From a virus (lineage: Duplodnaviria; Heunggongvirae; Uroviricota; Caudoviricetes): a DNA stretch of 35,072 nucleotides. The DNA lies in IMG/VR virus record IMGVR_UViG_2698536477_000006. One strand, given 5' to 3'. This document shows, in pieces, positions 1-33,060 of this stretch. The notes under the pieces were generated by a model. The model searched no databases. It was not told the origin of the DNA and saw nothing but the letters and a program-made list of their open reading frames with translations. A program made the position numbers and the translations under genes. The number at the start of each line of letters is the position of its first letter. Within the stretch, counting starts at the first letter, position 1.

Positions 1-1362
1 ATGTTTAAACCGGAACTCCTTTCCCCGGCGGGAACGCTGAAAAATATGCGTTACGCTTTCGCTTATGGCGCAGATGCTGTTTATGCGGGCCAGCCGCGTT
101 ATTCCCTGCGTGTGCGCAACAACGAATTCAACCACGAAAATCTTCAGCTCGGCATCAATGAAGCCCACGCGCTGGGGAAAAAGTTTTATGTCGTGGTCAA
201 CATTGCACCGCACAACGCCAAGCTGAAAACCTTTATCCGTGACCTGAAACCGGTGGTGGAAATGGGGCCGGATGCGCTGATTATGTCCGATCCAGGGCTG
301 ATTATGCTGGTGCGTGAGCACTTCCCTGAAATGCCGATCCACCTTTCGGTGCAGGCTAACGCCGTGAACTGGGCGACGGTGAAATTCTGGCAGCAAATGG
401 GCCTGACCCGCGTGATCCTCTCTCGCGAGCTGTCGCTGGAAGAGATTGAAGAGATCCGCAATCAGGTGCCGGATATGGAGATCGAGATCTTCGTTCACGG
501 CGCGCTGTGCATGGCCTACTCCGGTCGCTGCCTGCTCTCTGGCTATATCAACAAGCGCGACCCGAACCAGGGCACCTGCACCAACGCCTGCCGCTGGGAG
601 TACAACGTCCAGGAAGGGAAAGAAGATGATGTTGGCAACATCGTACACAAGTACGAGCCGATTCCGGTGCAAAATGTTGAGCCGACGCTGGGTATCGGCG
701 CACCAACCGACAAAGTGTTTATGATCGAAGAGGCCCAGCGTCCGGGCGAGTATATGACCGCGTTTGAAGATGAGCACGGCACTTACATCATGAACTCGAA
801 AGATCTGCGCGCCATCGCCCATGTAGAACGCCTGACCAAAATGGGCGTGCATTCGCTGAAAATCGAAGGTCGTACCAAATCTTTCTACTATTGTGCACGC
901 ACCGCACAGGTTTACCGCAAAGCTATCGATGACGCCGCTGCGGGAAAACCGTTCGATACCAGCCTGCTGGAAACTCTGGAAGGTCTGGCGCATCGTGGCT
1001 ATACCGAAGGTTTCCTGCGTCGTCATACTCACGACGATTATCAGAACTACGAATACGGTTATTCAGTTTCTGACCGCCAGCAGTTTGTTGGTGAGTTTAC
1101 CGGTGAGCGCAAGGGGGACCTCGCGGCGGTAGCGGTGAAAAATAAATTCTCCGTTGGCGACAGCCTTGAGCTGATGACGCCGCAAGGCAACATTAATTTT
1201 ACCCTTGAGCACATGGAAAACGCCAAAGGCGAAGCTATGCCGATAGCACCAGGCGATGGTTATACTGTGTGGCTCCCGGTCCCGCAGGATCTTGAGCTCA
1301 ATTACGCGCTGCTGATGCGTAATTTCTCCGGGGAAACCACGCGTAATCCCCACGGTAAGTGA
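1..1362 (+). CDS. yegQ: U32-family peptidase-like protein YegQ (tRNA hydroxylation, TrhP); host gene
   Basis: 453-aa ORF starting at window position 1; sequence recognised as E. coli YegQ; followed by cyaR as in the E. coli chromosome. Confidence 0.9.
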   Translation: MFKPELLSPAGTLKNMRYAFAYGADAVYAGQPRYSLRVRNNEFNHENLQLGINEAHALGKKFYVVVNIAPHNAKLKTFIRDLKPVVEMGPDALIMSDPGLIMLVREHFPEMPIHLSVQANAVNWATVKFWQQMGLTRVILSRELSLEEIEEIRNQVPDMEIEIFVHGALCMAYSGRCLLSGYINKRDPNQGTCTNACRWEYNVQEGKEDDVGNIVHKYEPIPVQNVEPTLGIGAPTDKVFMIEEAQRPGEYMTAFEDEHGTYIMNSKDLRAIAHVERLTKMGVHSLKIEGRTKSFYYCARTAQVYRKAIDDAAAGKPFDTSLLETLEGLAHRGYTEGFLRRHTHDDYQNYEYGYSVSDRQQFVGEFTGERKGDLAAVAVKNKFSVGDSLELMTPQGNINFTLEHMENAKGEAMPIAPGDGYTVWLPVPQDLELNYALLMRNFSGETTRNPHGK

Positions 1363-1391
1363 TTAATTTCGATTATTTTTCCCGGATGGAA

Positions 1392-1440
1392 AATTCTTAG
1401 AAACCGATCACATACAGCTGTATTTATTAAGGTTATCATC
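1392..1440 (+). promoter_or_regulatory. Candidate cyaR promoter: CRP half-site TCACA (1408-1412) and -10-like TATCAT (1434-1439)
   Basis: TCACA half-site about 40 nt upstream of the sRNA 5' end; TATCAT 8 nt upstream of 1447; cyaR is known to be CRP-activated. Confidence 0.4.
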
Positions 1441-1446
1441 CGTTTC

Positions 1447-1533
1447 GCTGAAAAACATAACCCATAAAATGCTAGCTGTACCAGGAACCACCTCCTTAGC
1501 CTGTGTAATCTCCCTTACACGGGCTTATTTTTT
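1447..1533 (+). ncRNA. cyaR: CyaR (RyeE) Hfq-dependent small RNA
   Basis: 87-nt stretch GCTGAAAAACATAACCCATAAAATGCTAGCTGTACCAGGAACCACCTCCTTAGCCTGTGTAATCTCCCTTACACGGGCTTATTTTTT matches the CyaR sequence as I recall it; terminator hairpin plus U-tail at the 3' end. Confidence 0.85.
1507..1533. repeat. P2 att core copy (27 bp, AATCTCCCTTACACGGGCTTATTTTTT), ogr-proximal prophage boundary inside the cyaR 3' end
   Basis: Identical 27-mer recurs at 34569-34595; it is the reverse complement of the P2 attP core AAAAAATAAGCCCGTGTAAGGGAGATT. Confidence 0.85.
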
Positions 1534-1597
1534 ACGTACAACAAATTGAAATAAAAGGATTTATTTCTGGTCACGTCCACACATTGACCACATCGAC

Positions 1598-1630
1598 AAA
1601 AAAGCCCCTCGACTGAGGGGCTTTCTGTTT
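1598..1630. terminator. Bidirectional intrinsic terminator hairpin (GCCCCTC-GACT-GAGGGGC) flanked by A-run and T-run
   Basis: 7-bp GC-rich stem with 4-nt loop; AAAAAA upstream and TTTCTGTTT downstream, so it terminates ogr on the minus strand and read-through from cyaR on the plus strand. Confidence 0.6.
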
Positions 1631-1634
1631 GTAA

Positions 1635-1853
1635 TTACATCCACATAATTTGCTGCCCTGACGGCAACGGGTGCGGCCTTACGGCGTGGACTTCTCCCGG
1701 CTTCACGATGTATCGCTGTACCGACTCATAAGTGATGAACGTGGCGCTGCAATTCACGTTCTGACACTGGTGATAACGCTCTTTTGTCGTGTCAGTGATA
1801 TAGCGACTTGTACGCGCATGTGCGGCATGCTGGCATAAAGGACAATGAAACAT
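1635..1853 (-). CDS. ogr: Ogr, zinc-finger late-gene transcriptional activator
   Basis: 72-aa product MFHCPLCQHAAHARTSRYITDTTKERYHQCQNVNC... with C4 zinc-binding motif; internal ATG at 1853 chosen over the longer ORF to match P2 Ogr length. Confidence 0.9.
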   Translation of the reverse strand: MFHCPLCQHAAHARTSRYITDTTKERYHQCQNVNCSATFITYESVQRYIVKPGEVHAVRPHPLPSGQQIMWM

Positions 1854-1934
1854 CGCGAGCACCTCTTCCGGTTTTGTTGATGGTGCCATTTTAGTTAATT
1901 TATCCTTATAAAACAAACAGATAAAATAAAAACA

Positions 1935-3098
1935 TCACTCATCATCTTCTGTTTCGTACTCCACATCAGAAAGCCTGACCTCAAGCTCTAAGGACGTCGT
2001 GAAGCCGCTATTATTCAGAAAATGTGTCACCTTAGTGATTGTCCAGTCCTGCTCGTCTATGACGCGCTTAAAGCCTGACACTCTGACCGGCGTTTCCGTG
2101 TAAATATCAGCCCGACCGGTAGCCAGGCTGATGGAGAACTCCGCCACCCCCCGTTGCAGTTTATCCCACTTCGCCTGAGCGGCGCGCATGGCCTGCGCTT
2201 TCGTGGCATATACCGTAGTCAGGGCAAAAACGTTGTCAGCCTCACCGGCCATGTATTCACCTTCGCGCGCTTCCGGTACTTTTGGCGCTTTCTTCTGCGT
2301 GACCGGTTTTGCTTTCGGGTGCTCCAGTGCGCGCAGGTGTTTTTCTTTCTTTTTGCGTTTCAGTTTTACCTTCTGCTTTTGTGGTTTCGGGTCTTTGGTG
2401 TGTAACCACTTTGCCGTTACGCCGGTATAGGCTCCACGGTCAGCAATCGCAAAATGATGGCGGTCGCCGTCGCTGCGGGTTATGGTGACCTGCGGGATTT
2501 TTTTACCGCTGGCCGTCACCCCCTGCCCCGCTTTGAGAAACAACAGTTTTCCCATTTTTACCGACACCTCGCCGCCGTTGCGTTCAGCAAGACGGGTCAG
2601 GAATTTCGCATCAGACTCCTGCGACTGGTCGATGTGCGGGATTTTAATTCCGGCCAGTGACGGAGTGACACTGGCTTCCAGCCTGTTACGGGAGGCTATC
2701 GCCTCAACAATCGCACCGAGCGTGGTGTCATGCCATGAGCCTTCCCGGCGGGAATTGAGCGTCCCGCGAAAATCTGCACTCCGGGCGCGGATGGTAACCA
2801 CATCCGGCGCGCCCCGGTGTTCAACCTCATCAACGGTAAATTTCCCTTTGCATACCAGGGCAAAACCTTTCCAGCCGATATACACCGTCAGGACAGCGCC
2901 ACGAACCGGCAGCCCGACCTGCCCGTCGGCATCGTTCAGTTCAATATCAAGCTGGTCAGCCTCAAAGCCCCGGTTATCCGTCAGGGTCATGCTCATCAGA
3001 CGGTCGCTGATATTGCCGGTAATATCCCTGCTGTCGAGCATCAGCATGTAATCCGGCGTCAGCGTACTGCCTGCATCAAATGTCAGTGCATCCAGCAT
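1935..3098 (-). CDS. D: Tail protein D (late control gene D)
   Basis: 387 aa, matches P2 gpD in length and position; start overlaps U stop. Confidence 0.9.
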   Translation of the reverse strand: MLDALTFDAGSTLTPDYMLMLDSRDITGNISDRLMSMTLTDNRGFEADQLDIELNDADGQVGLPVRGAVLTVYIGWKGFALVCKGKFTVDEVEHRGAPDVVTIRARSADFRGTLNSRREGSWHDTTLGAIVEAIASRNRLEASVTPSLAGIKIPHIDQSQESDAKFLTRLAERNGGEVSVKMGKLLFLKAGQGVTASGKKIPQVTITRSDGDRHHFAIADRGAYTGVTAKWLHTKDPKPQKQKVKLKRKKKEKHLRALEHPKAKPVTQKKAPKVPEAREGEYMAGEADNVFALTTVYATKAQAMRAAQAKWDKLQRGVAEFSISLATGRADIYTETPVRVSGFKRVIDEQDWTITKVTHFLNNSGFTTSLELEVRLSDVEYETEDDE

Positions 3099-8503: not shown

Positions 8504-9832
8504 CTATAAATCAATTAGTTCAAAATTATCATCAATATCTAGAGTACCAATATTGATGGAAATTGTAGAGTTTACTGTACTTCTGATAAAAGTTAATAGC
8601 CCTATGAGTTTAGGCATTAATTCCTCATCAATACCACCCCTCACTACAGCTATAATTTCTCCTTGTGTTATATCTTCCCGCTCTAAAAACTTTTCAAGCT
8701 GTTGGATAGCAGAAAATAAGCGAGTCCTCATTGAGATCAATAAACCCCGAGAAGAAAAGCTTTTAATTTCCACAGCAATAACATCACTTTCTTTTTTAAC
8801 TATTAAATCTATAGTTGGCCTACATCCCAAAGAGGGTGACAGGTCAACTTCGAATCCATTTCTTATGTAAAATTCCGCAACAGATTTTTCGGCCAAATGT
8901 TCTATTGCAATTGGATTTTGGGATTGATAACTATATATAATTTGATTGCGGTCTTCCTCATCAAGATCAATCTCCCCTAGCTTGTTTATTGCACCATTGA
9001 GGATTTCTTTTACTTGGTTTGATAAACTTCTTATTTCACAAAAATCCTGTTTAGTTAAAAATCTGTTATGTGCAACCTTATTTCTCAATTTGTAAAGTCG
9101 CTCCCATTTTCTTTCAAGATGTTGCGAGTTCTCCTCCAGGAGAGTAGAGAAATACTTCTCCCAATTTGATTTGGGTACATATTTAAGTATTTTATTTTTA
9201 TCGGACTCATCAAAATTCGTTTTGATAAGAATCCTATCAAGCTCATCCAGAGTTATATCTCTCTTCTTTTGGAACAAAACTTCTGATAGATTTATGAAAT
9301 CAAGCTTGTAAAGATCATTCAAATACACATCATCTTCTTCAAATTTTTCGATTTTTTTCACTAAGTCTGGATGAATGGCTTCCTTTGACCAAGCCATGCC
9401 TACATTAATAAGCATAAATTTACTTATTAATTTCCTCATTACGTTTTCAACATCATTTATTATAGGGTAAGACTTATGCGCATAATATCTTCCAATATCA
9501 TCCCAAAGAATATTTATTACTGTAGATTCAGGGTTTATCCTTTTGCATAATTCTTTTATTTTATCTCCAACCTCAGAAAATTCATCAATTAATTCTTCGC
9601 TTGTGTTTTCCAATGCAATTATGAAATAACGTTCTTTGTTGGATGGGATGTTATTCGTTTCAACATTGAATTTAACCGTAATTAACGGATTCGATCTTGG
9701 GGTTTTCTTATATGTTAGTTTGCGCCCCGTGATTGAGATAAGCGAGTCAATTTTTAGAAAGTCAATAAAAGCTTTTTTACTATTGCAAAAAGAATCATCA
9801 TTTGTGACAAGAACCAAAAATTCAAGTTTCAC
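8504..9832 (-). CDS. Cargo protein at the Z/fun hotspot: uncharacterised 442-aa protein with HEPN-like Rx4H motif and PD-(D/E)xK nuclease-like motif (candidate anti-phage / abortive-infection effector)
   Basis: Long ORF in a markedly AT-rich island between FI and G. RNKVAH at aa 250-255 (nt 9068-9085) fits HEPN Rx4-6H. P-T-I-D-LIV ... VIAV-E-I-K at aa 339-357 (nt 8762-8818) fits a restriction-endonuclease-like D...ExK core. Own terminator downstream. Confidence 0.6.
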   Translation of the reverse strand: MKLEFLVLVTNDDSFCNSKKAFIDFLKIDSLISITGRKLTYKKTPRSNPLITVKFNVETNNIPSNKERYFIIALENTSEELIDEFSEVGDKIKELCKRINPESTVINILWDDIGRYYAHKSYPIINDVENVMRKLISKFMLINVGMAWSKEAIHPDLVKKIEKFEEDDVYLNDLYKLDFINLSEVLFQKKRDITLDELDRILIKTNFDESDKNKILKYVPKSNWEKYFSTLLEENSQHLERKWERLYKLRNKVAHNRFLTKQDFCEIRSLSNQVKEILNGAINKLGEIDLDEEDRNQIIYSYQSQNPIAIEHLAEKSVAEFYIRNGFEVDLSPSLGCRPTIDLIVKKESDVIAVEIKSFSSRGLLISMRTRLFSAIQQLEKFLEREDITQGEIIAVVRGGIDEELMPKLIGLLTFIRSTVNSTISINIGTLDIDDNFELIDL

Positions 9833-10728: not shown

Positions 10729-12858
10729 TTATACCTGCGCCACGTTATACCATGTCCCGTTAATGTATTTCTGCACCGGTCTGTAATATACGCCACCAAT
10801 GTTATCGGCAGAGTTTGAGCCGGTATCCTGAACAATAATGCCGGTATATACACACCCTGACGGTACCTGATGTGTCCATGTCATGCCATTGTTCGCAGGT
10901 TTGTATGTGGCGGCACCACCAAGCCGGATATCCCGGACATAGCGGGAGTCAAAGTTACCGTAATCTGTGGGATTAACACGCCCCGTAATATTTATGGTTT
11001 TATTACTTTGAATGCTACCGGAGACAAAGCGCATAACATGAACGTTATTAGCATAAACATCCAGATTACCGTCGCCATTTTGTTTAAAGCCTGTGTCATT
11101 ATCACCCAAAACAATCGAGTTACCGCCAAGAGCACTGGATGTTCCGATGCCCAGTGCACCATTCAATTGACCTCCAGATAATGGCAACGCCCCAACATCA
11201 GCAGCAGTCGGTTTAATGTGCGAACTGTAAATTACATATACAGTTCCATCTGTCAGGCCTGTTGGTTTATTCGCTGTATAAGATGGTGATGTATGAATCG
11301 TTACGCTGGCGTTACTGGTATAATCCCACTGAATATTAACACCTGTGGCGTAATTACCTATTTCAACATAAACATCATAGGTATCACCGGATGTATTCAC
11401 CCATGCAAAATTAGTAAATCCAACCGATGTCCGTCGCCATAACGCACCAGTAAGACCTTTTGGATTTCCATTTCCCGCACGAAGAACAAGTTCAGATATA
11501 CCAGCCTGCATAGGGGAGTTAACATTATATCCAGCACCACCAATCAGACTTATGTAAACCACGGAACTGGCCTGTGGCATGGTTACAGTTGCCAGCCTGA
11601 ACCATCCTGTACCACCACTAAAAGACATGGTTGTTGAATTTGTTGCACCAATATTGCGCAGGAATAATCTTTTATCAGGAATATCCGCACCGTTCTGATC
11701 TTTCTGAAGACGTTTCTCAGCATTGTCATAGGCAGACTTCACCGCTTTTGGTGTTGCGGCGAGCGTTTCAGACGTGCTGTTAGTCGCACTACTGAGCTGA
11801 ACAAGGCCTTTTCGCGCCGTGGTGGCATCCTGCGCAGTATATTTCCCGTTAGCAAGGTCATACGCGACCTTTACCGCCTTTGGTGTTGCCGCAAGCGTTT
11901 CTGAATCGCTGTTGGTGGCGCTACTGAGCTGGACAAGACCTTTTCGCGCCGTGGTGGCATCCTGTGCGGTATATTTCCCGTTAGCGAGGTCATATGCTGC
12001 CTTTACCGCCTTTGGCGTTGCCGCAAGCGTTTCAGAATCGCTGTTGGTGGCGCTACTGAGCTGAGCAAGCCCTTTTCGCGCTGTGGTGGCGTCCTGTGCA
12101 GTGTATTTCCCGTTAGCAAGGTCATATGCTGTCTTTACTGCTTTTGGCGTTGCGGCGAGCGTTTCAGACGTGCTGTTAGTCGCACTACTGAGCTGAACAA
12201 GGCCTTTTCGCGCCGTGGTGGCATCCTGCGCAGTATATTTCCCGTTAGCAAGGTCATATGCGGCCTTTACCGCTTTCGGCGTTGCGGCCAGTGTTTCAGA
12301 CGTGCTGTTGGTCGCACTGCTTAACTGAGTAAAACCTTTTGCGGTCAGCGAGGCGTCCGGGTGACGTCGTGACTGTTCGTGCTCTGCAATTTTGTCATCA
12401 ACGTAATCCTGCGTCGCCATCACCGTTGTGGTGTCAATGGTCAGCGCCACTGAGGCCACACTGCTGACGATGATGACCATGCGACAGGTCTGCGAACGCC
12501 CTGAGCCTTCGGCAAGAGCTGGCTTATAACTTTCGGCCATGTTCGCCACGGCAATTAATGTTCCCGCATCATCGTACAGGCCAAGCTCACGCATCCAGAA
12601 ACCGCCCACCTCCGGCGGAATAACCAGCTCTGCGATAATATAATTACTGTTTCGTTTGTCCTGACTGATTTTGTTCAGCGCATGTCGCCAGACTTCGTGG
12701 ATAAGCCCGGTCTGTCCGGCATCCGGGACAGGCAATTTACCACCGCCATCCCCGACGGCCATCGTGGTAATGTTGACCTTCCGCCCTCCCGGTGCGGTTG
12801 CCGCTGCCAGCTTTGCTGCACCGGCAGTGGTGATAACGGTTTTGAATTTTGTGCTCAT
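10729..12858 (-). CDS. H: Tail fibre protein H (conserved P2-type N-terminus, repeat-containing shaft, divergent C-terminal receptor-binding region)
   Basis: 709 aa; N-terminus MSTKFKTVITTAGAAKLAAA... is the P2 gpH type; internal 44-aa tandem repeats; Gly/Ser/Thr-rich C-terminal half. Confidence 0.9.
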   Translation of the reverse strand: MSTKFKTVITTAGAAKLAAATAPGGRKVNITTMAVGDGGGKLPVPDAGQTGLIHEVWRHALNKISQDKRNSNYIIAELVIPPEVGGFWMRELGLYDDAGTLIAVANMAESYKPALAEGSGRSQTCRMVIIVSSVASVALTIDTTTVMATQDYVDDKIAEHEQSRRHPDASLTAKGFTQLSSATNSTSETLAATPKAVKAAYDLANGKYTAQDATTARKGLVQLSSATNSTSETLAATPKAVKTAYDLANGKYTAQDATTARKGLAQLSSATNSDSETLAATPKAVKAAYDLANGKYTAQDATTARKGLVQLSSATNSDSETLAATPKAVKVAYDLANGKYTAQDATTARKGLVQLSSATNSTSETLAATPKAVKSAYDNAEKRLQKDQNGADIPDKRLFLRNIGATNSTTMSFSGGTGWFRLATVTMPQASSVVYISLIGGAGYNVNSPMQAGISELVLRAGNGNPKGLTGALWRRTSVGFTNFAWVNTSGDTYDVYVEIGNYATGVNIQWDYTSNASVTIHTSPSYTANKPTGLTDGTVYVIYSSHIKPTAADVGALPLSGGQLNGALGIGTSSALGGNSIVLGDNDTGFKQNGDGNLDVYANNVHVMRFVSGSIQSNKTINITGRVNPTDYGNFDSRYVRDIRLGGAATYKPANNGMTWTHQVPSGCVYTGIIVQDTGSNSADNIGGVYYRPVQKYINGTWYNVAQV
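11719..12345 (-). repeat. About five tandem in-frame 132-nt (44-aa) repeats inside the tail fibre gene
   Basis: Protein motif QLSSATNS(T/D)SETLAATPKAVKxAYDLANGKYTAQDATTARKGLx recurs with 44-aa period from about aa 174 to 378; the nucleotide copies are near-identical with a few substitutions. Confidence 0.85.
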
Positions 12859-21551: not shown

Positions 21552-21724
21552 TGTCAGGAGTCCTGAATAGTGATTAGAGGAGTCACATGTCGGCATCAGT
21601 TTCCCGACGATGCGCATCCTCCGCCATCAGTCCCGGATGGCTTATCACTGACACAACAGCACCTTAGCGAATCGCGGGGCGCGACTCAGTAGCCTTGCCG
21701 TGTATTCATCACGGCGAGGTATTC

Positions 21725-23497
21725 ATGACCATCACCACAGACACCACTCTTTTACACGACCCGCGTCGTCAGGCGGCGCTGCTGTACTGGCAGGGATTTT
21801 CCGTGCCGCAGATTGCTGCCATGTTGCAGATGAAACGCCCGACGGTGCAGAGCTGGAAACAGCGCGACGGCTGGGACAGCGTTGCCCCCATCAGCCGTGT
21901 CGAAATGAGTCTGGAAGCGCGGCTGACCCAGCTCATCATCAAACCGCAGAAAACCGGCGGTGACTTCAAGGAAATTGACCTGCTCGGACGCCAGATTGAA
22001 CGACTGGCACGGGTAAACCGCTACAGCCAGACCGGCAACGAGGCAGACCTTAATCCGAACGTCGCTAACCGCAACAAAGGCGGGCGGCGCAAACCGAAAA
22101 AGAATTTTTTCAGTGACGAGGCCATCGAAAAGCTGGAGCAGATTTTCTTTGAGCAGTCTTTCGAATATCAGTTGCACTGGTATCGCGCCGGGCTTGAGCA
22201 CCGCATCCGCGATATCCTGAAATCCCGCCAGATTGGCGCAACGTTTTATTTTTCCCGCGAGGCGCTGCTGCGCGCCCTGAAAACCGGCCATAACCAGATT
22301 TTTCTGTCGGCCAGTAAAACGCAGGCGTATGTGTTCCGCGAATACATCATCGCCTTTGCCCGTCTGGTTGACGTTGACCTGACCGGTGACCCGATTGTCC
22401 TGGGCAATAACGGCGCAAAACTGATTTTTCTCGGCACCAACTCCAACACCGCGCAGAGCCATAACGGCGACCTGTACGTCGACGAGATTTTCTGGATCCC
22501 GAATTTTCAGGTACTGCGTAAGGTGGCATCAGGTATGGCCTCACAGAGCCACCTGCGCTCGACCTATTTCTCCACCCCGTCCACGCTGGCGCACGACGCC
22601 TACCCGTTCTGGTCGGGTGAACTGTTTAACCGGGGACGCGCCAGCGCCGCCGAACGCGTGGAAATCGACGTCAGTCATAACGCCCTTGCCGGAGGTCTTC
22701 TCTGTGCGGACGGCCAGTGGCGGCAGATTGTCACCATTGAGGACGCCCTGAAAGGCGGCTGCACGCTGTTCGACATTGAGCAGCTCAAACGTGAAAACAG
22801 CGCCGACGATTTTAAAAACCTGTTCATGTGTGAATTTGTTGACGACAAGGCGTCGGTGTTCCCGTTCGAGGAGCTGCAACGCTGCATGGTCGACACGCTG
22901 GAAGAATGGGAAGACTATGCGCCGTTTGCCGCCAATCCGTTCGGCTCCCGCCCGGTCTGGATTGGTTACGACCCGTCACACCGTGGCGACAGTGCCGGAT
23001 GCGTGGTGCTGGCACCGCCGGTGGTGGCCGGTGGCAAATTCAGAATACTTGAGCGTCACCAGTGGAAAGGCATGGACTTTGCCACACAGGCGGAATCCAT
23101 CCGCAAACTCACCGAAAAATACAACGTCGAATACATCGGAATTGATGCCACCGGCCTCGGTGTCGGCGTGTTCCAGCTCGTGCGCTCGTTCTATCCCGCC
23201 GCGCGCGATATCCGCTACACGCCGGAAATGAAAACCGCAATGGTGCTCAAGGCAAAAGACGTCATCCGCCGTGGCTGTCTGGAATATGACGTCAGCGCCA
23301 CCGACATCACCAGCTCGTTTATGGCTATCCGCAAGACCATGACCAGCAGCGGACGCAGCGCCACTTATGAGGCCAGCCGCAGCGAGGAAGCCAGCCACGC
23401 CGACCTCGCCTGGGCGACCATGCACGCCCTGTTAAATGAGCCACTCACCGCCGGTATCAGCACACCGCTGACATCCACCATTCTGGAGTTTTACTGA
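21725..23497 (+). CDS. P: Terminase large (ATPase) subunit P
   Basis: 590-aa product from ATG at 21725 (MTITTDTTLL...); divergent from O across the P_O/P_P intergenic region. Confidence 0.9.
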   Translation: MTITTDTTLLHDPRRQAALLYWQGFSVPQIAAMLQMKRPTVQSWKQRDGWDSVAPISRVEMSLEARLTQLIIKPQKTGGDFKEIDLLGRQIERLARVNRYSQTGNEADLNPNVANRNKGGRRKPKKNFFSDEAIEKLEQIFFEQSFEYQLHWYRAGLEHRIRDILKSRQIGATFYFSREALLRALKTGHNQIFLSASKTQAYVFREYIIAFARLVDVDLTGDPIVLGNNGAKLIFLGTNSNTAQSHNGDLYVDEIFWIPNFQVLRKVASGMASQSHLRSTYFSTPSTLAHDAYPFWSGELFNRGRASAAERVEIDVSHNALAGGLLCADGQWRQIVTIEDALKGGCTLFDIEQLKRENSADDFKNLFMCEFVDDKASVFPFEELQRCMVDTLEEWEDYAPFAANPFGSRPVWIGYDPSHRGDSAGCVVLAPPVVAGGKFRILERHQWKGMDFATQAESIRKLTEKYNVEYIGIDATGLGVGVFQLVRSFYPAARDIRYTPEMKTAMVLKAKDVIRRGCLEYDVSATDITSSFMAIRKTMTSSGRSATYEASRSEEASHADLAWATMHALLNEPLTAGISTPLTSTILEFY

Positions 23498-24531
23498 TGA
23501 GCAAGAAAAAAGGGAAAACACTGCAACCTGCGGCAAAAAAAATGACCGCCAGTGCCCCGAAAATGGAGGCATTCACCTTTGGCGAACCGGTGCCGGTACT
23601 CGACCGCCGTGACATTCTGGATTACGTCGAGTGCATCAGTAACGGCAGATGGTATGAGCCACCAATCAGCTTTACCGGTCTGGCAAAAAGCCTGCGTGCT
23701 GCCGTGCATCACAGCTCCCCGATTTACGTCAAACGCAATATTCTGGCCTCGACATTTATCCCGCATCCGTGGCTGTCCCAGCAGGATTTCAGCCGCTTTG
23801 TGCTGGATTTTCTGGTGTTCGGTAATGCGTTTCTGGAAAAGCGTTACAGCACTACCGGTAAAGTCATCAGACTGGAAACCTCACCGGCAAAATATACCCG
23901 CCGTGGTGTGGAAGAGGATGTTTACTGGTGGGTGCCGTCCTTCAACGAGCCGACAGCCTTCGCGCCCGGTTCCGTGTTTCACCTGCTGGAGCCGGATATT
24001 AATCAGGAGCTGTACGGCCTGCCGGAATATCTCAGCGCCCTTAACTCTGCCTGGCTGAATGAGTCGGCCACGCTGTTCCGCCGCAAGTATTACGAAAACG
24101 GCGCACATGCCGGATACATCATGTACGTTACCGATGCCGTGCAGGATCGCAACGATATCGAAATGCTTCGCGAAAACATGGTGAAGTCGAAAGGCCGCAA
24201 CAACTTTAAAAACCTGTTTCTCTATGCCCCACAGGGAAAAGCCGACGGCATTAAAATTATCCCGCTCAGTGAAGTGGCAACGAAGGACGATTTTTTTAAT
24301 ATCAAAAAAGCCAGCGCCGCAGACCTGCTGGACGCGCACCGCATCCCCTTTCAGTTGATGGGCGGCAAGCCGGAGAACGTCGGGTCGCTGGGTGATATTG
24401 AGAAAGTGGCAAAGGTCTTTGTCCGCAATGAGCTTATCCCGTTACAGGACAGGATCCGCGAGATAAACGGCTGGCTCGGTCAGGAGGTCATCCGCTTTAA
24501 AAACTACTCACTGGACACTGACAACGGCTGA
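23497..24531 (+). CDS. Q: Portal protein Q
   Basis: 344 aa; P2 gpQ length; last gene before cos. Confidence 0.9.
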   Translation: MSKKKGKTLQPAAKKMTASAPKMEAFTFGEPVPVLDRRDILDYVECISNGRWYEPPISFTGLAKSLRAAVHHSSPIYVKRNILASTFIPHPWLSQQDFSRFVLDFLVFGNAFLEKRYSTTGKVIRLETSPAKYTRRGVEEDVYWWVPSFNEPTAFAPGSVFHLLEPDINQELYGLPEYLSALNSAWLNESATLFRRKYYENGAHAGYIMYVTDAVQDRNDIEMLRENMVKSKGRNNFKNLFLYAPQGKADGIKIIPLSEVATKDDFFNIKKASAADLLDAHRIPFQLMGGKPENVGSLGDIEKVAKVFVRNELIPLQDRIREINGWLGQEVIRFKNYSLDTDNG

Positions 24532-24536
24532 ACATC

Positions 24537-24558
24537 GCCGCCTGCGGGCGGCTTTTTT
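24537..24558 (+). terminator. Intrinsic terminator after Q (GCCGCC-TGCG-GGCGGC then TTTTTT)
   Basis: 6-bp GC stem, 4-nt loop, 6-T run immediately after the Q stop. Confidence 0.7.
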
Positions 24559-24700
24559 ACACCCCGTCATCACACCCTCACACGCTCACCACCGCACAAA
24601 ACACCCCGCAGACACACCAACGCCCCGGCGCACAATCCAAACGCCGTCACGACGCGCTCAGACGCTGAAAAAATAAAATCAGCACCACCGCCAGCGCGCA

Positions 24701-24719
24701 GTGCTTTCCCCGCCTCGCC
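24701..24719. other. cos: cos cohesive-end sequence (19 nt; reverse complement of GGCGAGGCGGGGAAAGCAC)
   Basis: GTGCTTTCCCCGCCTCGCC read directly; matches the P2 19-nt cohesive end; located between Q and the early region as in P2. Confidence 0.8.
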
Positions 24720-24848
24720 CGCCCGCTTCATGTGGCGATTTTAATGCGGTTGCATTTTTATCGAAAGTCTCGTCTCACAAATCCCTCCCTTCACTAAATA
24801 GACTCATTATCCACATGCAATCTAATTCAAAAAAATGCATGTATAGTA

Positions 24849-26819
24849 TTAAAGGTCATCAATTAAACCTAAAGGCAAACCGTCCTCACCAACCGAGCTA
24901 TAATGAGCGATAATATTCGAAAGTTCACCAGTAGAAAACGAATTAGGCAAATCATTATCAACTAATATAATCTGGCACGGAACATTTTTTCTTTCTGCTT
25001 TTTGAACTGTATTCAATAGTTGTTCATAAATATTTTGATACTTCATCGGATCTGACATTCCCTCAAGGTCATCCTCGAATGCAAGAGTTTCTTTTGAATA
25101 TTTTTCCTTGGTCTGTTTCCCTAAATATTTGCCAACCGTATCAAATATCAAAAGTAAAGGATGGTTAACATTATGATCTATTGCATAATCAAGAATAGAC
25201 AAAAGATACCCAATAGAAGAAATAGTTCTCAAACCTCCGGATGTTATTTTAAAATATTCTTTTTCTCTTATAACAGGAATGTAATAGCTTTCAGAGATTT
25301 TTATCCCCGTTCTGTTTTTGATATTAATACCCTTCAAATACTGACTAAATCTATCACCCAAACCTTGTAAAATGCCCTCCATGCTAGGTGCGTTTTTCTT
25401 TAACGCCTCCAAGCGTTCAGTTAATGCTTCAATATCTTTTCTCAGTACCTGATACTTTTCAAGCAGTTCCTCTTGCTGGTTTCTAACCTTCAAATCTTTT
25501 ACTAACTGCTCCCTAACCTTCTCATTTTTTGAGATCTCTTTAATATAAAAATCTCTCTGAGTCAAGAATGGTGTAATCATTGACTGGCTTTCTTCGTCAA
25601 TCAATTCTCTCAACTCGTCAAGTCGTTCATCTAATTCCTTTTTATAACCTGATTCTTTTTTTAATTTAAATGACATTTCTGAGATCATGTCATTAATATT
25701 TCGTCTACGTCGACTAAGTGAATTCAACTCTTCATTAAGATCTTTTTCTGATGAGATTTCAAATGGAAAATCAGAATCATCTATTTTAATGTGGCTATCA
25801 CAGACTGGACAGGAAAATACTTCCTTATCCAATACACCAATGCGAGAATTTGCTGTTTTAATCGCTTTGAGTTTTTCAATATCATTATCATAGTCATTTT
25901 TTAACCGCGAATATTTATCAATCTTATCCTCAAGCGCAGTAATATTTAATATGCACTCTTTGTATTTAAGCGAAATAAAATTGTGAGCATCTTTCAATTC
26001 TGTATACTGTATGGAATCCGCTTTCATATTTTTATCGAGAGCAGACAAACCTGCAACAAGTTCTTCTAAAACAAGATCTATCCTATTAATCTCATCATCA
26101 ATTGATTCAATCGTTTCATAGTCTGTATCGCGAAGAAATTCAGATATTATCTGATACTTCCTATTTAATTCCGTTACTAAACTACTTTTTGCAGATATTT
26201 CACCTTGGAGTCTGGCGATGCTTTCATCCAACACATTGAACATGTATTTAAAAACTTCTTTCGTAAATGCGTAGCGGGACCAATCACCCAATCGCAAGAA
26301 AGATTTACTACCAATATCATCCTGACTTACATAAACAAATTTATATATATTTCTAAAACTTAACCTGCGCATCTGTGAATGAGCTTTAGAAGGAGACACC
26401 TTAATTTCAATCTTTGGAAAATTAAGACTATCAAGTAAAAACTCCGAAAAAACACCATCAACATTTGATAATGGGCTATAATTAGGAGCGTATTTTTTCG
26501 GAAAATGTTTATGTAAATCATCAAACTTACAACGATAAACTTCTATTGCTTTTTTATGATCATAGATATCTCTTACGATTGTGAATACAGTATCATTGAT
26601 CACTACTTCAAGAGCAGCATAGTTTACTGATGTTTTTATTTCATCTGCTAAATCTATAGAGCTAGCACCTAAAAGATAATTAATAAACTCCAGAATGCTT
26701 GACTTACCTGTGTCAGAGTCTCCGTAGATAACATTGAGACCTTTATAAAAAGTAGTGACGTAGTTTTTACGAACGCCAACAAGAATCAAACTATTGATAT
26801 TGAGATATGATTTCATCAT
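24849..26819 (-). CDS. SMC/Rad50-like ABC ATPase (Lamassu LmuB-like / ABC-3C ATPase component): N-terminal Walker A, long central coiled-coil with CxxC hook, C-terminal signature-like and Walker-B-like motifs
   Basis: 656 aa; Walker A GDSDTGKS at aa 33-40; central region rich in E/K/L heptad-like sequence; CPVC at aa 337-340 (nt 25800-25811); ITSGG at aa 525-529; hydrophobic strand LLLIFD at aa 555-560; start overlaps stop of the upstream gene. Confidence 0.75.
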   Translation of the reverse strand: MMKSYLNINSLILVGVRKNYVTTFYKGLNVIYGDSDTGKSSILEFINYLLGASSIDLADEIKTSVNYAALEVVINDTVFTIVRDIYDHKKAIEVYRCKFDDLHKHFPKKYAPNYSPLSNVDGVFSEFLLDSLNFPKIEIKVSPSKAHSQMRRLSFRNIYKFVYVSQDDIGSKSFLRLGDWSRYAFTKEVFKYMFNVLDESIARLQGEISAKSSLVTELNRKYQIISEFLRDTDYETIESIDDEINRIDLVLEELVAGLSALDKNMKADSIQYTELKDAHNFISLKYKECILNITALEDKIDKYSRLKNDYDNDIEKLKAIKTANSRIGVLDKEVFSCPVCDSHIKIDDSDFPFEISSEKDLNEELNSLSRRRRNINDMISEMSFKLKKESGYKKELDERLDELRELIDEESQSMITPFLTQRDFYIKEISKNEKVREQLVKDLKVRNQQEELLEKYQVLRKDIEALTERLEALKKNAPSMEGILQGLGDRFSQYLKGINIKNRTGIKISESYYIPVIREKEYFKITSGGLRTISSIGYLLSILDYAIDHNVNHPLLLIFDTVGKYLGKQTKEKYSKETLAFEDDLEGMSDPMKYQNIYEQLLNTVQKAERKNVPCQIILVDNDLPNSFSTGELSNIIAHYSSVGEDGLPLGLIDDL

Positions 26820-27328
26820 TTCTCCTTGAAGACTTGATTTATAACAGAGTTTAACTTAGAGGTAGGCAATGCTTGTAGCGGTAACAATGCTTCGGATAGT
26901 CGTTTTATTTCTTTAAAATATCCATCAGTCAATGAGCTAGCAAATTCCTTACCTTTTTCAGATAAAAATAATTTAACACTCTCATTATTTTTTTTCTCAG
27001 CTGAGAGCAATCCCCGCAATGACATAATTTTTATAAGATATTTCACTTTGGAATTGTCGAATAAGATATCTACATTTGTTGAAAAACTCTTTATTGTATA
27101 AGTTAACTGGGACTCGACACAAGCAGGCTTTTTCCCCGAAACTGTAAGAGCATAATCAATTTTTGATGGGTTTTTTATCAGATACATAAAAATTTGTATT
27201 TTATTAATATCTAATGATAACACTCCTTTTTTGCTATGAGATAATATAGATATAGCAATGGCAAGCATAGCAAAATTCAAGCTATACTCTTCATCAAGAG
27301 GAATATACGGCAAGTTATTTTTCTTCAT
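26816..27328 (-). CDS. Small middle component (LmuC-like / ABC-3C MC) of the cassette
   Basis: 170-aa ORF wedged between effector and ATPase with overlapping start and stop codons on both sides; AT-rich like its neighbours. Confidence 0.6.
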   Translation of the reverse strand: MKKNNLPYIPLDEEYSLNFAMLAIAISILSHSKKGVLSLDINKIQIFMYLIKNPSKIDYALTVSGKKPACVESQLTYTIKSFSTNVDILFDNSKVKYLIKIMSLRGLLSAEKKNNESVKLFLSEKGKEFASSLTDGYFKEIKRLSEALLPLQALPTSKLNSVINQVFKEK

Positions 27329-28538
27329 GATTACCTCGCCGTAATTGCTCCAAAGTTTCTACGCTGGTTTCAGATGACCAGACAATATCCCTGTCATTTT
27401 TGTTAGCCAGTTGATGCAACATTCCTTTCTTATGTATCGTTTCTAAACTTTTTATAAGAGAATCTAACGACGACTTATCCTCTTGGGCTATTCGTCTATG
27501 AACAGCAGCAATAAATTTATCTGGGGAAATTGAATTCGCGATATATTGCTCATACTCTTCCTGGTAAATCTCCCTTATTTTAGAATACAAATGACCAAGT
27601 AGTTTCCTATCGTAATCACTCGTAAAAATATTTCTCGCAAGCTCAGCATTATAATAATATTCCTTTGCATGCATAGCGATATCCTGATGTATATCTGCGA
27701 CAATCATTTTTAAGACGAAATACTCATTATCATATTGTTTCTCATCAGAAAAACGCTCAACACATATCTTCTTGGGTGCTTCTAAATTTATCTGCTGAAT
27801 AAATTGCTTTACCGCAACAAACACTGTAGACGAGCTGTTTTCGGGCTTGCAAATTGAGCTATGCCCTTCATTAACTGCAATTGAGTTATTTCGTTCACTA
27901 TCCATCGGTAATGCGCTTTTTTTATCAACTATAGTGTCATGAGAACCATAAACATATCTAGTGATAGGAAGTTTTTTGCTACAATTTATCCAGCGCCTAT
28001 TCAACGTATCGGTCGCTTCACTTAACAATCCAAGATCTACTAACTGAGCATTTGAAGATACCATTGAAGTTATATTCGCCAATTTAGCACCAAAGTGAGG
28101 GACTGCTAACGAAATGAATCCAATTATATTAGATTGTTCCTCATGCTCAACTTTTTTTAGAATTAGATTTTTTGATATTAACCCCCCCATACTATGGGCG
28201 ATTATTATAATTCGAGAGTAATCACTTAGCGTTACCCTAATCTCAGTATACAATAACTCAGCTATTTCATCAGTTGGTAAATTTCTCTCTAACTTATTTT
28301 TCTTAGAGAAAATACGAGCCCATAATCCTGACGTTTTAGCATACGTTTGTGTAAATTTGGTGAAATAATTGAAACATGCAATATCAAATACATTGCCAAT
28401 GTCTTCATCTTCTGCTAATAGTTTTGGAAATGAAGTTTCTTTATTAAAGTTCCATGTTTCCAAACCACCATTTAATCCATGTACAAATAGTATCAGGCTA
28501 TCTTTTTTCTCGTGGCTTATCCATTCAACCATGCTCAT
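27315..28538 (-). CDS. Effector component: N-terminal alpha/beta-hydrolase (lipase/esterase-like) domain plus C-terminal helical domain (LmuA-like with hydrolase effector)
   Basis: 407 aa; oxyanion HG in LFVHGLNGG (aa 17-25); nucleophile elbow AHSMGG with Ser116 (nt 28191-28193); candidate Asp201 (GSHDTIVD) and His226 (NEGHSS) give a Ser-Asp-His triad in canonical order; first gene of the three-gene operon. Confidence 0.7.
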   Translation of the reverse strand: MSMVEWISHEKKDSLILFVHGLNGGLETWNFNKETSFPKLLAEDEDIGNVFDIACFNYFTKFTQTYAKTSGLWARIFSKKNKLERNLPTDEIAELLYTEIRVTLSDYSRIIIIAHSMGGLISKNLILKKVEHEEQSNIIGFISLAVPHFGAKLANITSMVSSNAQLVDLGLLSEATDTLNRRWINCSKKLPITRYVYGSHDTIVDKKSALPMDSERNNSIAVNEGHSSICKPENSSSTVFVAVKQFIQQINLEAPKKICVERFSDEKQYDNEYFVLKMIVADIHQDIAMHAKEYYYNAELARNIFTSDYDRKLLGHLYSKIREIYQEEYEQYIANSISPDKFIAAVHRRIAQEDKSSLDSLIKSLETIHKKGMLHQLANKNDRDIVWSSETSVETLEQLRRGNHEEK

Positions 28539-28586
28539 ATGCTTTTCTGCCGTGTATAAAAATTAAACTATAACAAACAATTCCTC

Positions 28587-28603
28587 AACAATAACATATT
28601 GTT
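28587..28603. promoter_or_regulatory. Inverted repeat AACAATA-aca-TATTGTT about 50-65 nt upstream of the cassette start codon (candidate operator/promoter element)
   Basis: 7-bp perfect arms read directly, in the 89-nt gap between the A stop and the effector start. Confidence 0.3.
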
Positions 28604-28627
28604 ACCCCGTTTGACCGTTTTTTTCAA

Positions 28628-30910
28628 CTACCACTCACGCTGTCTGTCAAAAAAGTCGATATCGTTATCAAATTTAAAACGCTTATGCCCAAAATCCAAA
28701 ACAGCTCCGCGAGCGAGAGCTTCAAGCTCCCAATAACTAGCCTGAATGTCACTTTGTGCAAGAAGAACCTTAATTTTCGGGATAGTCTTTCTCTCCTGCC
28801 TTGTCAACCGGGCGGATGGGGCAGGAAAGTAGCTTCGACCATTGAAAGGGGTAAAGCTCTGCTGTGAACGATTACTGCATTTCAGTTCATTACTCAATAA
28901 GTCTCTAAGTACCTTCATAATGCCTGGCTCGGTCCAACTTAGAATCCCTTCATCTATTAAATTTAACACCGCTGCAGCATGCTCAGTCGGTGTGGGAGCC
29001 GGTAACGAAGTATCACCACCGGTGAGTTTTCCACAGTTATTGACAGGACTCCGAGGCGCGGCGATGCCGCTTTTTAAAGTCAAAGGCTCAACGACCGGAA
29101 CTTTCGGCACAATGCGCCAGTCCGTCGTTCTGGTGATATGAATATGACGCGCGCCGAGATGCGGCGCGTAAATGCCGACCACTCTCTCGACTTCTTCCTC
29201 GTACTCGTTAACGTCATCCGACGGGCTACGGGCGACCCTGACAGTCTGACAATCGCGCGGGACATTTGCCCCACCCTGCGCGCTGATATACAACGCAAAA
29301 TCACCACTGTCTGCGGCAGCGCGAGCAGCCTCGACGCGTTCGTCAAACTCATCAGCAATACTGACGCCGCGAGGCAATTTGCGTAGTTCACGGTAAGCCC
29401 CCATTGTCGGCAGTCCAACCGTTTTAAATTGCGGAATGCGCCACGTTGACGCCCATGCGGTAACAGCCGCGGCAGTATCTTTAAGCGGCTTACCGGTATC
29501 GTTATCGAGCTGACCATCCAGTGCATAGCCGTCGATGTTTTTTGAAATGTATTTCGCGATATATCCCGCAGCACCGCCCCGGTTAAGGTGTTTTGCCTGA
29601 AAACGGTTTCGCGCAGCTCCTCTTTCGTCTCCATCCTCTTTGAGCGCGTAGCGACGCATGATTTCGATAATCTGGTTACGCTGGCGTGGATTACAAAAAA
29701 GCATCATATGCCAGTGCGGCGTTCCGTCGTGGTGTGGCTCGACGACACGCAAACCGTAGACCTGTAAATCATTATCCTTGAATGCCGTGCGCATCAGGCT
29801 CCAGATGCGGCAGAGATAACGCTGCGCATCCTTTGGATTAAATGCCTCATCGTTCCAGCCGTGATTAAGCTGAACGGTTTTACTTTCGCCTTTTCTGACC
29901 TGACGTGTCGGGTGATACTTTGACGGCGCGGTCAGCGTGATAAACATCCCCACATCACCCTCTGCGGCGGCGTAACGCTCAATACCGGCAATGGTGTTCA
30001 TCAGCTCCATCCGGCGAATTTCAGGATTAGAAATACTGCCCATCACCTTACTGATAAGGTCGATGCGCTCGCCGGTTTCCCTGTTTTCAAGGTCACACGA
30101 TTTAAGAAATTCCAGATTTGCCTGGCGGCGCGCACGCACATCACGAATGGCGTGTTTACTGGCATAAGGAGAACGGTCTTTATTGACCTCCCCGACAGCT
30201 ATCAGTAACGCTTCATGCCAGCGCATACGCTGGCCTTTAAGCTGATGAGTCCACCACTCATCGTTAAACAGACGGGCAATGGCAGAATATGCCTGCCTCG
30301 TGGTCATCTGCCCTTTACGGTATTTTTTCCAGTAGAGAGGGGAAATATTGAAAGCACGTGCAGCGCCAGCAACATGACCATAGAGGTGAGCCTGCGCCTC
30401 ATCCGTAAACAGCGATTCTTTTTCGCCATGCGCATCCACCCAGGCATCACTGAGTTCCCCATACATCATGAAAAGCTGCGATGAGATACGGGCAGCAAAC
30501 TTTTTCAGCTCCTTGTCATTCATTCCCGGCAGGCGCGCATAGTGGTCACGCTCTGCCAGAAACAGTAACGACGCGTCGGTGTTCATTTCATGGCGCTGAT
30601 TCACACGCTCAATGCGCGGCCATAAACGACGCTGAAAAGTGGATGTGAGGAAATAAAACCCGTGCACCGGGCTTTTATTGCGCCGGATGTGGTCATAGCG
30701 TGAAGTAAACAGCGAGCGCAAAAAGTAAGGCAGGCGGTTAATCGTGGATAAAACACCTTGCACCTGACGCATCTCGTCACGTGTAAGGGGTCTTTCGCGC
30801 CCGACGGCCTCGCGTGGCGCGTTCCATGCATAAGCACCGGTAAACGCCTTACCGGTGCCTGCAGCAAATGCTGACGGAGGGACAAAACGCCCGGAGGCTT
30901 TAACGGCCAT
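28628..30910 (-). CDS. A: Replication initiation protein A (rolling-circle nickase)
   Basis: 761-aa product from internal ATG at 30910 (MAVKASGRFVPPSAF...); P2 gpA length. Confidence 0.9.
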   Translation of the reverse strand: MAVKASGRFVPPSAFAAGTGKAFTGAYAWNAPREAVGRERPLTRDEMRQVQGVLSTINRLPYFLRSLFTSRYDHIRRNKSPVHGFYFLTSTFQRRLWPRIERVNQRHEMNTDASLLFLAERDHYARLPGMNDKELKKFAARISSQLFMMYGELSDAWVDAHGEKESLFTDEAQAHLYGHVAGAARAFNISPLYWKKYRKGQMTTRQAYSAIARLFNDEWWTHQLKGQRMRWHEALLIAVGEVNKDRSPYASKHAIRDVRARRQANLEFLKSCDLENRETGERIDLISKVMGSISNPEIRRMELMNTIAGIERYAAAEGDVGMFITLTAPSKYHPTRQVRKGESKTVQLNHGWNDEAFNPKDAQRYLCRIWSLMRTAFKDNDLQVYGLRVVEPHHDGTPHWHMMLFCNPRQRNQIIEIMRRYALKEDGDERGAARNRFQAKHLNRGGAAGYIAKYISKNIDGYALDGQLDNDTGKPLKDTAAAVTAWASTWRIPQFKTVGLPTMGAYRELRKLPRGVSIADEFDERVEAARAAADSGDFALYISAQGGANVPRDCQTVRVARSPSDDVNEYEEEVERVVGIYAPHLGARHIHITRTTDWRIVPKVPVVEPLTLKSGIAAPRSPVNNCGKLTGGDTSLPAPTPTEHAAAVLNLIDEGILSWTEPGIMKVLRDLLSNELKCSNRSQQSFTPFNGRSYFPAPSARLTRQERKTIPKIKVLLAQSDIQASYWELEALARGAVLDFGHKRFKFDNDIDFFDRQREW

Positions 30911-31175
30911 ATGAGCCAAAAGCCTCTGAGCAACGCTTGCTGAGTTGCTCAACCTGCGCGTTTAAATCAGCAAAAGACTTTGCGCTTCCGGTCAGAATAT
31001 CGTGATGCATCAGGCCGGAAACGAGCTGGCTTAATTTCGGGTAATAACCAACCACCGCCAGCCATTCCTGACCGGCGTTTTTACCGCTTTCCGCTCTCTT
31101 TTTCTCGTGGAGAATAAACTGAAAGCTGTCACTGGTAACGACATAACGTTCGCCAATTTCAATACGAATACTCAT
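30900..31175 (-). CDS. Early-operon hypothetical protein (P2 orf83 position)
   Basis: 91-aa ORF directly upstream of A in the same orientation. Confidence 0.6.
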   Translation of the reverse strand: MSIRIEIGERYVVTSDSFQFILHEKKRAESGKNAGQEWLAVVGYYPKLSQLVSGLMHHDILTGSAKSFADLNAQVEQLSKRCSEAFGSYGR

Positions 31176-31396
31176 GCCGTTCTCCGGTAACGTTTGTTTT
31201 TTGCTTCAAAGACTGACTGACAGGAAACACAACGCGTGGCTGACGGGTAAGCCGCACGACGGGCAGCAGGTATTGGCGCGTCACACTCTTCGCAAACCAG
31301 CGCAGAAGCACCGCAATGTTTTACCCTTGCCGCGTTAATCTGGCGCTCCAGTAATTCAGCCTGTTGTTCCTGAATAAAATCTACGTTGTCCGGCAT
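31172..31396 (-). CDS. TraR/DksA-family C4 zinc-finger protein (P2 orf82 position)
   Basis: 74 aa with CxxC...CxxC (CEECDAPIP...CVSCQ) typical of the TraR/DksA zinc ribbon. Confidence 0.75.
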   Translation of the reverse strand: MPDNVDFIQEQQAELLERQINAARVKHCGASALVCEECDAPIPAARRAAYPSATRCVSCQSVFEAKNKRYRRTA

Positions 31397-31398
31397 TA

Positions 31399-31701
31399 TC
31401 AGCTCCTTTTATCGTTAAGTTTCCTGGATACATCAGCGCAATAACTGGCAAGTTCTGTCGTTAATTTTGTCAGTTCATCCACTGAGGAAATTTGCTTGTG
31501 GAATACAGCGCGTTTAACAAGTAAATTGACCACATCAGACAGGAGGTTTAATTCATTCTGATAAATCGCGATAACAGATTCAGTTATGTCGCGTTTTTCT
31601 TTATCAAGGCAAAGTTGAATAAGAGACAAATCGCCATTTTTCATAACGGCGATTTTTAAGGCGTTATTCAGTAATACAACTGAATGAGAACAGGACATCA
31701 A
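31399..31701 (-). CDS. Early-operon hypothetical protein, AT-rich (P2 orf81 position)
   Basis: 100-aa ORF with visibly lower G+C than neighbouring early genes. Confidence 0.55.
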
Positions 31702-31922
31702 AGCACCTCCCCGCGAGACAATCCGATATTGTGAAATTTTTCCGACTCCTGACTGAGCAGCTCGACTATCTCCACGCGGGATAACTCCGCCTTTGTGATA
31801 TGGCGAATCATGGCGTCAAGATGAGAAGAAAAGCGTGTCGCTGCGTCGGCCTGTGCTTCGGCTCTGGCCTGTTGCAGCAGTAATGCGTATTTACCGCACT
31901 TGTTTTCAGAAACTGTATGCAT
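31698..31922 (-). CDS. Early-operon hypothetical protein (P2 orf80 position)
   Basis: 74-aa ORF, 4-nt overlap with the downstream gene. Confidence 0.55.
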
Positions 31923-31985
31923 GACTTTCTCCAGGCAAAAAGAAGCCCCGCACGATTAAGTGCGTTAAAAACTCTGGTTAATTAT

Positions 31986-32486
31986 TTAATGCAGATATTG
32001 CTCTGGTTTTACCGACGTCAGAATTGTCGGTGCATACTCAAACAGGCTGAATAATTCACGTAATGCACGGAATAAAGCATCACGCCAGTAACATGATTCT
32101 TCATTAATTCGCCAGTATGGCTGGTTGAATTCTTTTTCAGTCAATCCGGCATGCATAAATAAAGTACGACGCTGACTGACTGTTAAAAAACTAATATATG
32201 CATACTCACTTGCGCCAACCTGACGGCGTTTTGAGAATGCCCCACGCAATTCATCAATTGCACAAACCAGCCGTTCACGTTCGACGTCGTTCATTTCTTC
32301 AAAACGCATCGTTGCGTGACGCTGTTTTAACTGCGCATGGAAGCAAACCGTTAGCCGTTCGCGTTCCATCATCTGATTATAATAATCACATGTATCCTGC
32401 CAGCGAGGGACGGCAAGATGCTTGCCAATTATCCGGCGCATAGCTGCTGGCTGTTTTTCAACGAGATTGAGCGTCATCACTGTCAT
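31986..32486 (-). CDS. B: Replication protein B (helicase-loading)
   Basis: 166 aa; P2 gpB length and position. Confidence 0.85.
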   Translation of the reverse strand: MTVMTLNLVEKQPAAMRRIIGKHLAVPRWQDTCDYYNQMMERERLTVCFHAQLKQRHATMRFEEMNDVERERLVCAIDELRGAFSKRRQVGASEYAYISFLTVSQRRTLFMHAGLTEKEFNQPYWRINEESCYWRDALFRALRELFSLFEYAPTILTSVKPEQYLH

Positions 32487-32939: not shown

Positions 32940-32964
32940 CTGCTACGATTCTCCCTTAGTGCTT

Positions 32965-32983: not shown

Positions 32984-33060
32984 AATTATTGCCTAAAAGG
33001 ATAACTCCAGAAGCACAACATTTCACACTATCAGCAAGAAATTACGCAATCGGAGTAATT

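Follow-up and report, generated by a model that had tools for sequence, protein, structure and literature searches.

The analyzed stretch of DNA (35,072 nt, herein referred to as the window) is almost certainly an Escherichia coli segment, running from yegQ and cyaR to yegR, that carries a complete P2-like (Peduovirus) prophage at the known attB site of phage P2, namely the last 27 nt of the small RNA gene cyaR. No evidence contradicting this explanation was found in the analysis. The features of the window are listed in Table 1.

Table 1. Features of the window with their coordinates, strands, and the data on which each assignment is based.
Feature	Coordinates	Strand	Basis and details
yegQ/trhP, left chromosomal flank	1-1362	+	453-aa ORF; annotated as yegQ/trhP in matching E. 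coli genomes
cyaR (ryeE) sRNA gene, intact	1447-1533	+	Rfam RF00112; identity to K-12
CyaR intrinsic terminator (predicted)	1498-1533	+	Terminator scan and RNA fold; 11-bp stem 1498-1508/1515-1525, loop 1509-1514, tail UAUUUUUU 1526-1533
27-bp attL core, identical with the P2 attP core and the final 27 nt of cyaR	1507-1533	+	Repeat search, P2 record, alignment
IHF-binding region of the P2 P arm (putative)	1532-1565	none	Mapped from AF063097 protein_bind; one base differs from P2
P2-like (Peduovirus) prophage body	1534-34568	none	Nucleotide identity to P2 of ~96% (late genes) and 98.8% (C-int-attP)
Int arm-type sites of the P arm (putative), repeats GTCCACA and GACCACA	1569-1596	none	P2 annotation mapped; motifs at 1575 and 1586
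P2 rho-independent terminator for ogr and the F operon	1601-1624	-	P2 annotation, terminator pattern, RNA fold
ogr, late-gene activator, first prophage gene	1635-1853	-	Pfam Ogr_Delta, 76.9 bits; P2 annotation
D	1935-3098	-	
Tail fibre gene H	10729-12858	-	
Terminase gene	21695-23497	+	
Portal gene	23497-24531	+	
gpA gene	28628-30952	-	
cox	32664-32939	-	PHROG Cox-like excisionase, E = 1.7e-45
C	33061-33360	+	
int, P2-type tyrosine integrase	33476-34489	+	Pfam Int_N and Phage_integrase; 98.8% DNA identity with the int region of P2
Int sites of the P' arm (34455-34481) with the Cox-binding region (34479-34552) (putative)	34455-34552	none	P2 annotation mapped
attR core (27 bp), partial non-functional duplicate of the CyaR 3' end	34569-34595	+	Repeat search, alignment, RNA fold
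Bacterial flank with one arm-type repeat and resemblance to the P2 P arm	34609-34643	none	Repeat family D6, alignment, motif search
yegR, right chromosomal flank	34755-35072	-	105-aa ORF; annotated as yegR in matching genomes

The 27-bp Core and Homology to P2

The 27-mer AATCTCCCTTACACGGGCTTATTTTTT is present in the window in exactly two exact copies, at positions 1507-1533 and 34569-34595, both on the plus strand. The preliminary description of this DNA had placed the core and its second copy at these positions, and both pairs of coordinates proved exact on re-inspection. No third copy was found in the window even with up to 3 mismatches allowed, and no chance matches to the 27-mer were found in 100 dinucleotide-preserving shuffles of the window. 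The same pair was recovered by the repeat finder (family D3). The repeat is maximal, since the bases on either side of the two copies differ (T1506 vs. A34568 and A1534 vs. T34596). The att-to-att spacing is 33,062 bp.

The same 27-mer is annotated as attP in the GenBank record of bacteriophage P2 (AF063097, positions 24356-24382). On the late-gene side, homology to P2 begins at position 1534, the first base past the core; on the int side, it ends exactly at position 34595, the last base of the core. Nucleotide identity to P2 is 98.8% for positions 33300-34595, and identity to P2 and many of its relatives is approximately 96% over the late genes (alignment of positions 1534-26000). In a three-way alignment, attL is composed of the bacterial left flank, the core, and the P arm of P2, in which one base of the IHF region is changed. 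Correspondingly, attR is composed of the P2 P' arm, the core, and the bacterial right flank, and the switches are located exactly at the core edges. The gene order is also that of P2 (attL-ogr-D ... A-B-cox-C-int-attR). The DNA between the core copies is a complete P2-like (Peduovirus) prophage.

In the P2 record, an IHF site, a P arm Int site, and a rho-independent terminator are annotated on the ogr side of attP, and a P' arm Int site and Cox sites are annotated on the int side. The layout of the Int, IHF, Cox, and arm sites in the window is the same as in P2. The P' arm/Cox stretch is identical to P2 over its aligned part (34459-34552), with arm motifs at 34463 and 34474. Mapped in this way, every cis element that the P2 record annotates for attP is retained in the window as a putative site, and the set is divided between attL and attR.

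The Empty Attachment Site

An empty site was constructed in silico by joining positions 1033-1533 to positions 34596-35072, and the resulting 978-nt sequence was searched in 5,426 complete E. coli genomes. At least 22 prophage-free E. coli genomes carry it in one unbroken piece with 100% identity, and it lies there between yegQ and yegR. At least 80% of the construct was covered at a single place in 4,565 of the 5,426 genomes. Each of the empty loci examined has one copy of the core. The alignment with an empty locus had been named as a check in the preliminary description; run in silico, it gave the left flank, one core, and the right flank, uninterrupted, in prophage-free E. coli. Because the flanks join uninterrupted around one core in the empty sites, the 27-mer is precisely the junction. 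Thus, the att core, the edges of P2 homology, and the empty site all agree with the earlier claim of a P2-type prophage inserted at the 3' end of cyaR.

The insertion next to yegQ is presumably at locI, the preferred site of P2 in E. coli C. This P2 attachment site was reportedly described by Yu, Bertani and Haggard-Ljungquist in 1989 and by Barreiro and Haggard-Ljungquist in 1992, and the latter work is also said to have described the P2 remnant of E. coli K-12.

The cyaR Gene and Its Terminator

The CyaR_RyeE model (Rfam: RF00112) matched the window at positions 1445-1530 with 100.7 bits, vs. a gathering score of 47 (E = 3.4e-19). The match spans model positions 1-85 of 85 and is the sole Rfam match in the window. 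Positions 1447-1533 are 100% identical to the annotated 87-nt cyaR gene of K-12 (b4438, NC_000913.3 2167114-2167200). Synteny is as in K-12, with cyaR located downstream of yegQ, and the region upstream of cyaR falls inside a 98.9% alignment with K-12.

In the RNA fold, CyaR forms three hairpins, of which the terminator is the last. A rho-independent terminator at the 3' end of cyaR is predicted from both pattern and fold. Of this terminator, the core takes in the loop, the entire 3' stem half, and the U-tail, together with the final 2 nt of the 5' half of the stem. The core had previously been described as the final 27 nt of CyaR, including the downstream half of the terminator and the U-tail; the fold bears this out and shows that 2 nt of the 5' stem half are included as well.

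The lysogen, K-12, and the empty sites of strains 2014C-3307 and BL21(DE3) all have the same cyaR sequence (1447-1533). In the empty site of strain CRE389, cyaR matches too; there, the next base is A, as at position 1534 of the window, and the T-run is one T shorter. The lysogen keeps cyaR unaltered, since the att core corresponds to the final 27 nt of CyaR and its two copies are identical. The identity of the two copies also means that no trace is left of where within them the crossover took place. The share of the attL terminator that is phage-derived cannot be read from the sequence, and the earlier statement that the phage supplies the 3' end of the sRNA is thus undecidable at attL.

The int-proximal copy had been described as a partial duplicate of the CyaR 3' end, and this description holds. 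The attR copy has only these 27 nt, without the 5' stem half and without a promoter, and adjoins int. No terminator hairpin was found at attR by RNA folding, because the 5' stem half is absent. The only structure there is a weak alternative hairpin of 8 bp (GGGCUUAU/AUAAGCCC, z-score +0.5), and attR was accordingly rejected as a terminator.

Proposed Course of Integration

By established knowledge of P2 and lambda-type integrases, the tyrosine integrase Int of the prophage, together with IHF, would have recombined attP with the attB core. Recombination between identical cores leaves a complete and unchanged cyaR at attL (1447-1533). Phage DNA follows cyaR from position 1534 onward, first with the putative IHF and P-arm Int sites, then with the ogr/F-operon terminator and ogr. 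At the other end, recombination leaves the promoter-less 27-nt duplicate at attR, beside int. CyaR would still be made and would be terminated normally at its own hairpin, as the same knowledge of these integrases suggests. Integration could be reversed by Int, IHF, and Cox, as for P2 and lambda-type integrases.

The window is a clean worked example of a phage whose attB is the terminator-bearing end of an sRNA gene and which keeps this gene intact, with the same logic as for tRNA and tmRNA genes. Similar elements at the 3' ends of tRNA, tmRNA, or sRNA genes include P4 at leuX, the ssrA elements, and the Salmonella phages at ryeB/sdsR. In these elements, as in the window, attB overlaps a 3' end containing a hairpin, an identical copy is carried so that the gene stays intact, and a partial duplicate is found at the far end. 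Unlike the elements at tRNA ends, the prophage in the window has as its target the terminator of an Hfq-dependent sRNA, rather than the T-arm or acceptor stem of a tRNA, and the segment of identity is short (27 bp). For annotation, the borders of the prophage are fixed to the base, and cyaR is undisrupted.

Distribution of the Junctions and the K-12 Remnant

The attL junction, joining cyaR to the P2 arm, was found in 1,165 of the 5,426 complete E. coli genomes (~21%). The attR junction, formed by int, attR, and the flank, was found in 814 of these genomes.

In the RefSeq annotation of K-12, the "cryptic prophage PR-X" (2167183-2167811) overlaps the 3' end of cyaR and holds ogrK and the pseudogene yegZ. 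The K-12 genome aligns with window positions 1-2147 at 98.9% identity and resumes at position 34578, inside the attR core. PR-X has the same attL junction as the window and a cyaR that is 100% identical, but it has lost everything from the middle of gene D (2147) to the middle of the attR core (34578), whereas the window has the full 33-kb prophage. Through the deletion, gene D is cut in its middle and joined without a gap to the attR core, likewise cut in its middle (TACACGGGCTTATTTTTTT; K-12 locus 2184-2821), and only 18 nt are left of the second core. By this alignment, PR-X is a deletion derivative of exactly the arrangement found in the window.

The arrangement is already known and annotated, and the window adds no new biology. 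The P2 attP core is on record, the K-12 remnant is annotated over cyaR, and the "cyaR RNA" site is found in published tables of insertion sites. Thus, Wphi2 (P2) of strain W, ogr-D' of K-12, and P2*B of strain B are each assigned to the insertion site "cyaR RNA" (Archer et al., 2011, Table 2; PMC3032704). A passage in Bobay et al. (2013; PMC3603311) refers to phages already known to target ryeE in E. coli, citing Wassarman et al. (2001). No mention of cyaR or locI was found in the paper on P2 integrase phylogeny (PMC3448106).

The Hairpin between the Core and ogr

A hairpin with a 10-bp stem is located at positions 1601-1624, with approximately -20 kcal/mol on both strands and z-scores of -4.9 (plus strand) and -5.1 (minus strand). 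On the minus strand, UUUUUU comes after the stem GCCCCUC/GAGGGGC. On the plus strand, the hairpin is followed by UUUCUGUUUGU and passes a simple terminator pattern. As the patterns suggest, it may terminate transcription in both directions. In the P2 record AF063097, this hairpin is labeled "rho-independent terminator for ogr transcript and F operon", and both of these lie on the minus strand of the window.

A strong hairpin terminator between the core and ogr had been placed at 1598-1630 in the preliminary description and had been considered to insulate the prophage and sRNA transcripts from each other. The hairpin is real, with its stem at 1601-1624; the wider limits correspond to the flanking A-run and the T-rich tail. 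On the minus strand, its documented role is that of the ogr/F-operon terminator. Insulation against read-through from CyaR is plausible as a further role but is not the documented one. The role as ogr/F-operon terminator fully explains the hairpin, so insulation is not needed to account for its presence. A downstream back-stop is nevertheless conceivable, because the K-12 CyaR terminator showed 41% read-through as measured with a double-terminator plasmid in a delta-hfq strain (PMC9765468).

A P-Arm-Like Stretch in the Right Flank

The bacterial flank at positions 34609-34643 can be aligned locally with the P2 P arm (1562-1597) with a score of 38. For 2,000 shuffles, the mean score was 13.6 and the maximum was 24, and none of the 2,000 reached 38. 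The two stretches have in common the exact 15-mer CATTGACCACATCGA, which holds one arm-type Int repeat. The P-arm-like stretch is conserved in prophage-free E. coli strains and is followed by an 11-bp hairpin at positions 34660-34692 in the RNA fold. No phage att arm matching the right flank (34596-34770) better than P2 was found in the collection, where the only matches were records with host flank. Given its conservation in strains without the prophage, this part of the right flank probably represents what an older P2-like element has left behind as a fossil in the "empty" site.

Alternative Explanations

The two 27-mers might be a chance or otherwise unrelated repeat instead of att sites, and the phage-like DNA might be a degraded island that has become fixed in the chromosome. 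No point supporting this explanation was found, and its probability is practically nil. The absence of any match to the 27-mer in the shuffles, its identity with the annotated P2 attP, the homology breakpoints located exactly at the core edges, and the precise empty site present in thousands of genomes all stand against a chance repeat. A degraded island is contradicted by the retention of int, cox, C, A, and the portal, terminase, and tail genes. This explanation is already refuted.

A different question is whether integration of P2 at cyaR is neutral for the sRNA. Integration replaces the DNA from position 1534 onward, and a change from T7 to T6-A could alter termination efficiency, Hfq binding, or read-through of CyaR in P2 lysogens and in the K-12 remnant, with the ogr terminator 68 nt downstream acting as a back-stop against antisense read-through into ogr. 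We consider such an effect unlikely. The empty sites of 2014C-3307 and BL21(DE3) have a run of 7 T after the CyaR terminator, vs. 6 T followed by A at attL (1526-1534) in both the window and K-12, and a poly(U) tail of at least 7 permits efficient Hfq binding (PMC9765468). The 41% read-through of the K-12 terminator and the plus-strand terminator pattern at 1601-1624 are also in agreement with an effect of this kind. However, the prophage-free strain CRE389 likewise has 6 T. Since the empty sites themselves have either 6 or 7 T, the change in the T-run is not specific to lysogeny, and shortening of the U-tract by every integration was rejected as a general rule. A change of one U at the CyaR 3' end on integration would depend on the parental allele. 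Moreover, the hairpin is fully explained by its terminator role on the other strand, and the CyaR of K-12, which has the attL form, is the functional sRNA of the literature.

Two further readings, one on CyaR and one on the fossil in the right flank, go somewhat beyond this, and we regard them as similarly improbable. In the first, the CyaR of K-12 and of approximately one-fifth of E. coli would be an attL hybrid with its T-tract and downstream context set by P2 DNA, and lysogeny could tune termination, Hfq loading, or read-through, with the ogr terminator as a back-stop. In the second, the empty attB would itself be a fossil: an ancient P2-like element may have become fixed in the E. coli lineage and then eroded, and its remnant could conceivably still affect integration efficiency. 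The preferred reading remains a P2-like prophage integrated at the known attB, with cyaR kept intact.

Cargo Genes of the Prophage

Apart from the one base in the IHF region, the prophage differs from P2 in the content of two variable slots. In the slot between the portal gene Q and the replication gene A, the P2 genes are replaced by a three-gene Lamassu-type anti-phage operon (24849-28538, minus strand). The operon encodes LmuA (407 aa), with an alpha/beta-hydrolase N-terminus and ABC-3C CTD8; LmuC (170 aa), with ABC-3C MC4; and LmuB (656 aa), found by PADLOC with 781 bits. Among the P2-family records listed, none covers the whole of 23000-33400, and the best covers 59%.

The other variable slot has the sheath gene on one side and the tail-fibre genes on the other, and contains a 442-aa ORF (8504-9832, minus strand). 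No PHROG family was found for this ORF; the only matches, both sub-threshold, were to HEPN_Swt1 (20.6 bits vs. a cutoff of 27.5) and to PADLOC PDC-M34B (27.7 bits). The ORF may be an uncharacterised defence cargo gene.

The tail-fibre gene H (709 aa) contains five head-to-tail repeats of 132 nt (44 aa) at positions 11725-12384. These repeats are 78-88% identical to the first copy (repeat finder, 264-nt frame), and they match Pfam Phage_fiber_2 five times.
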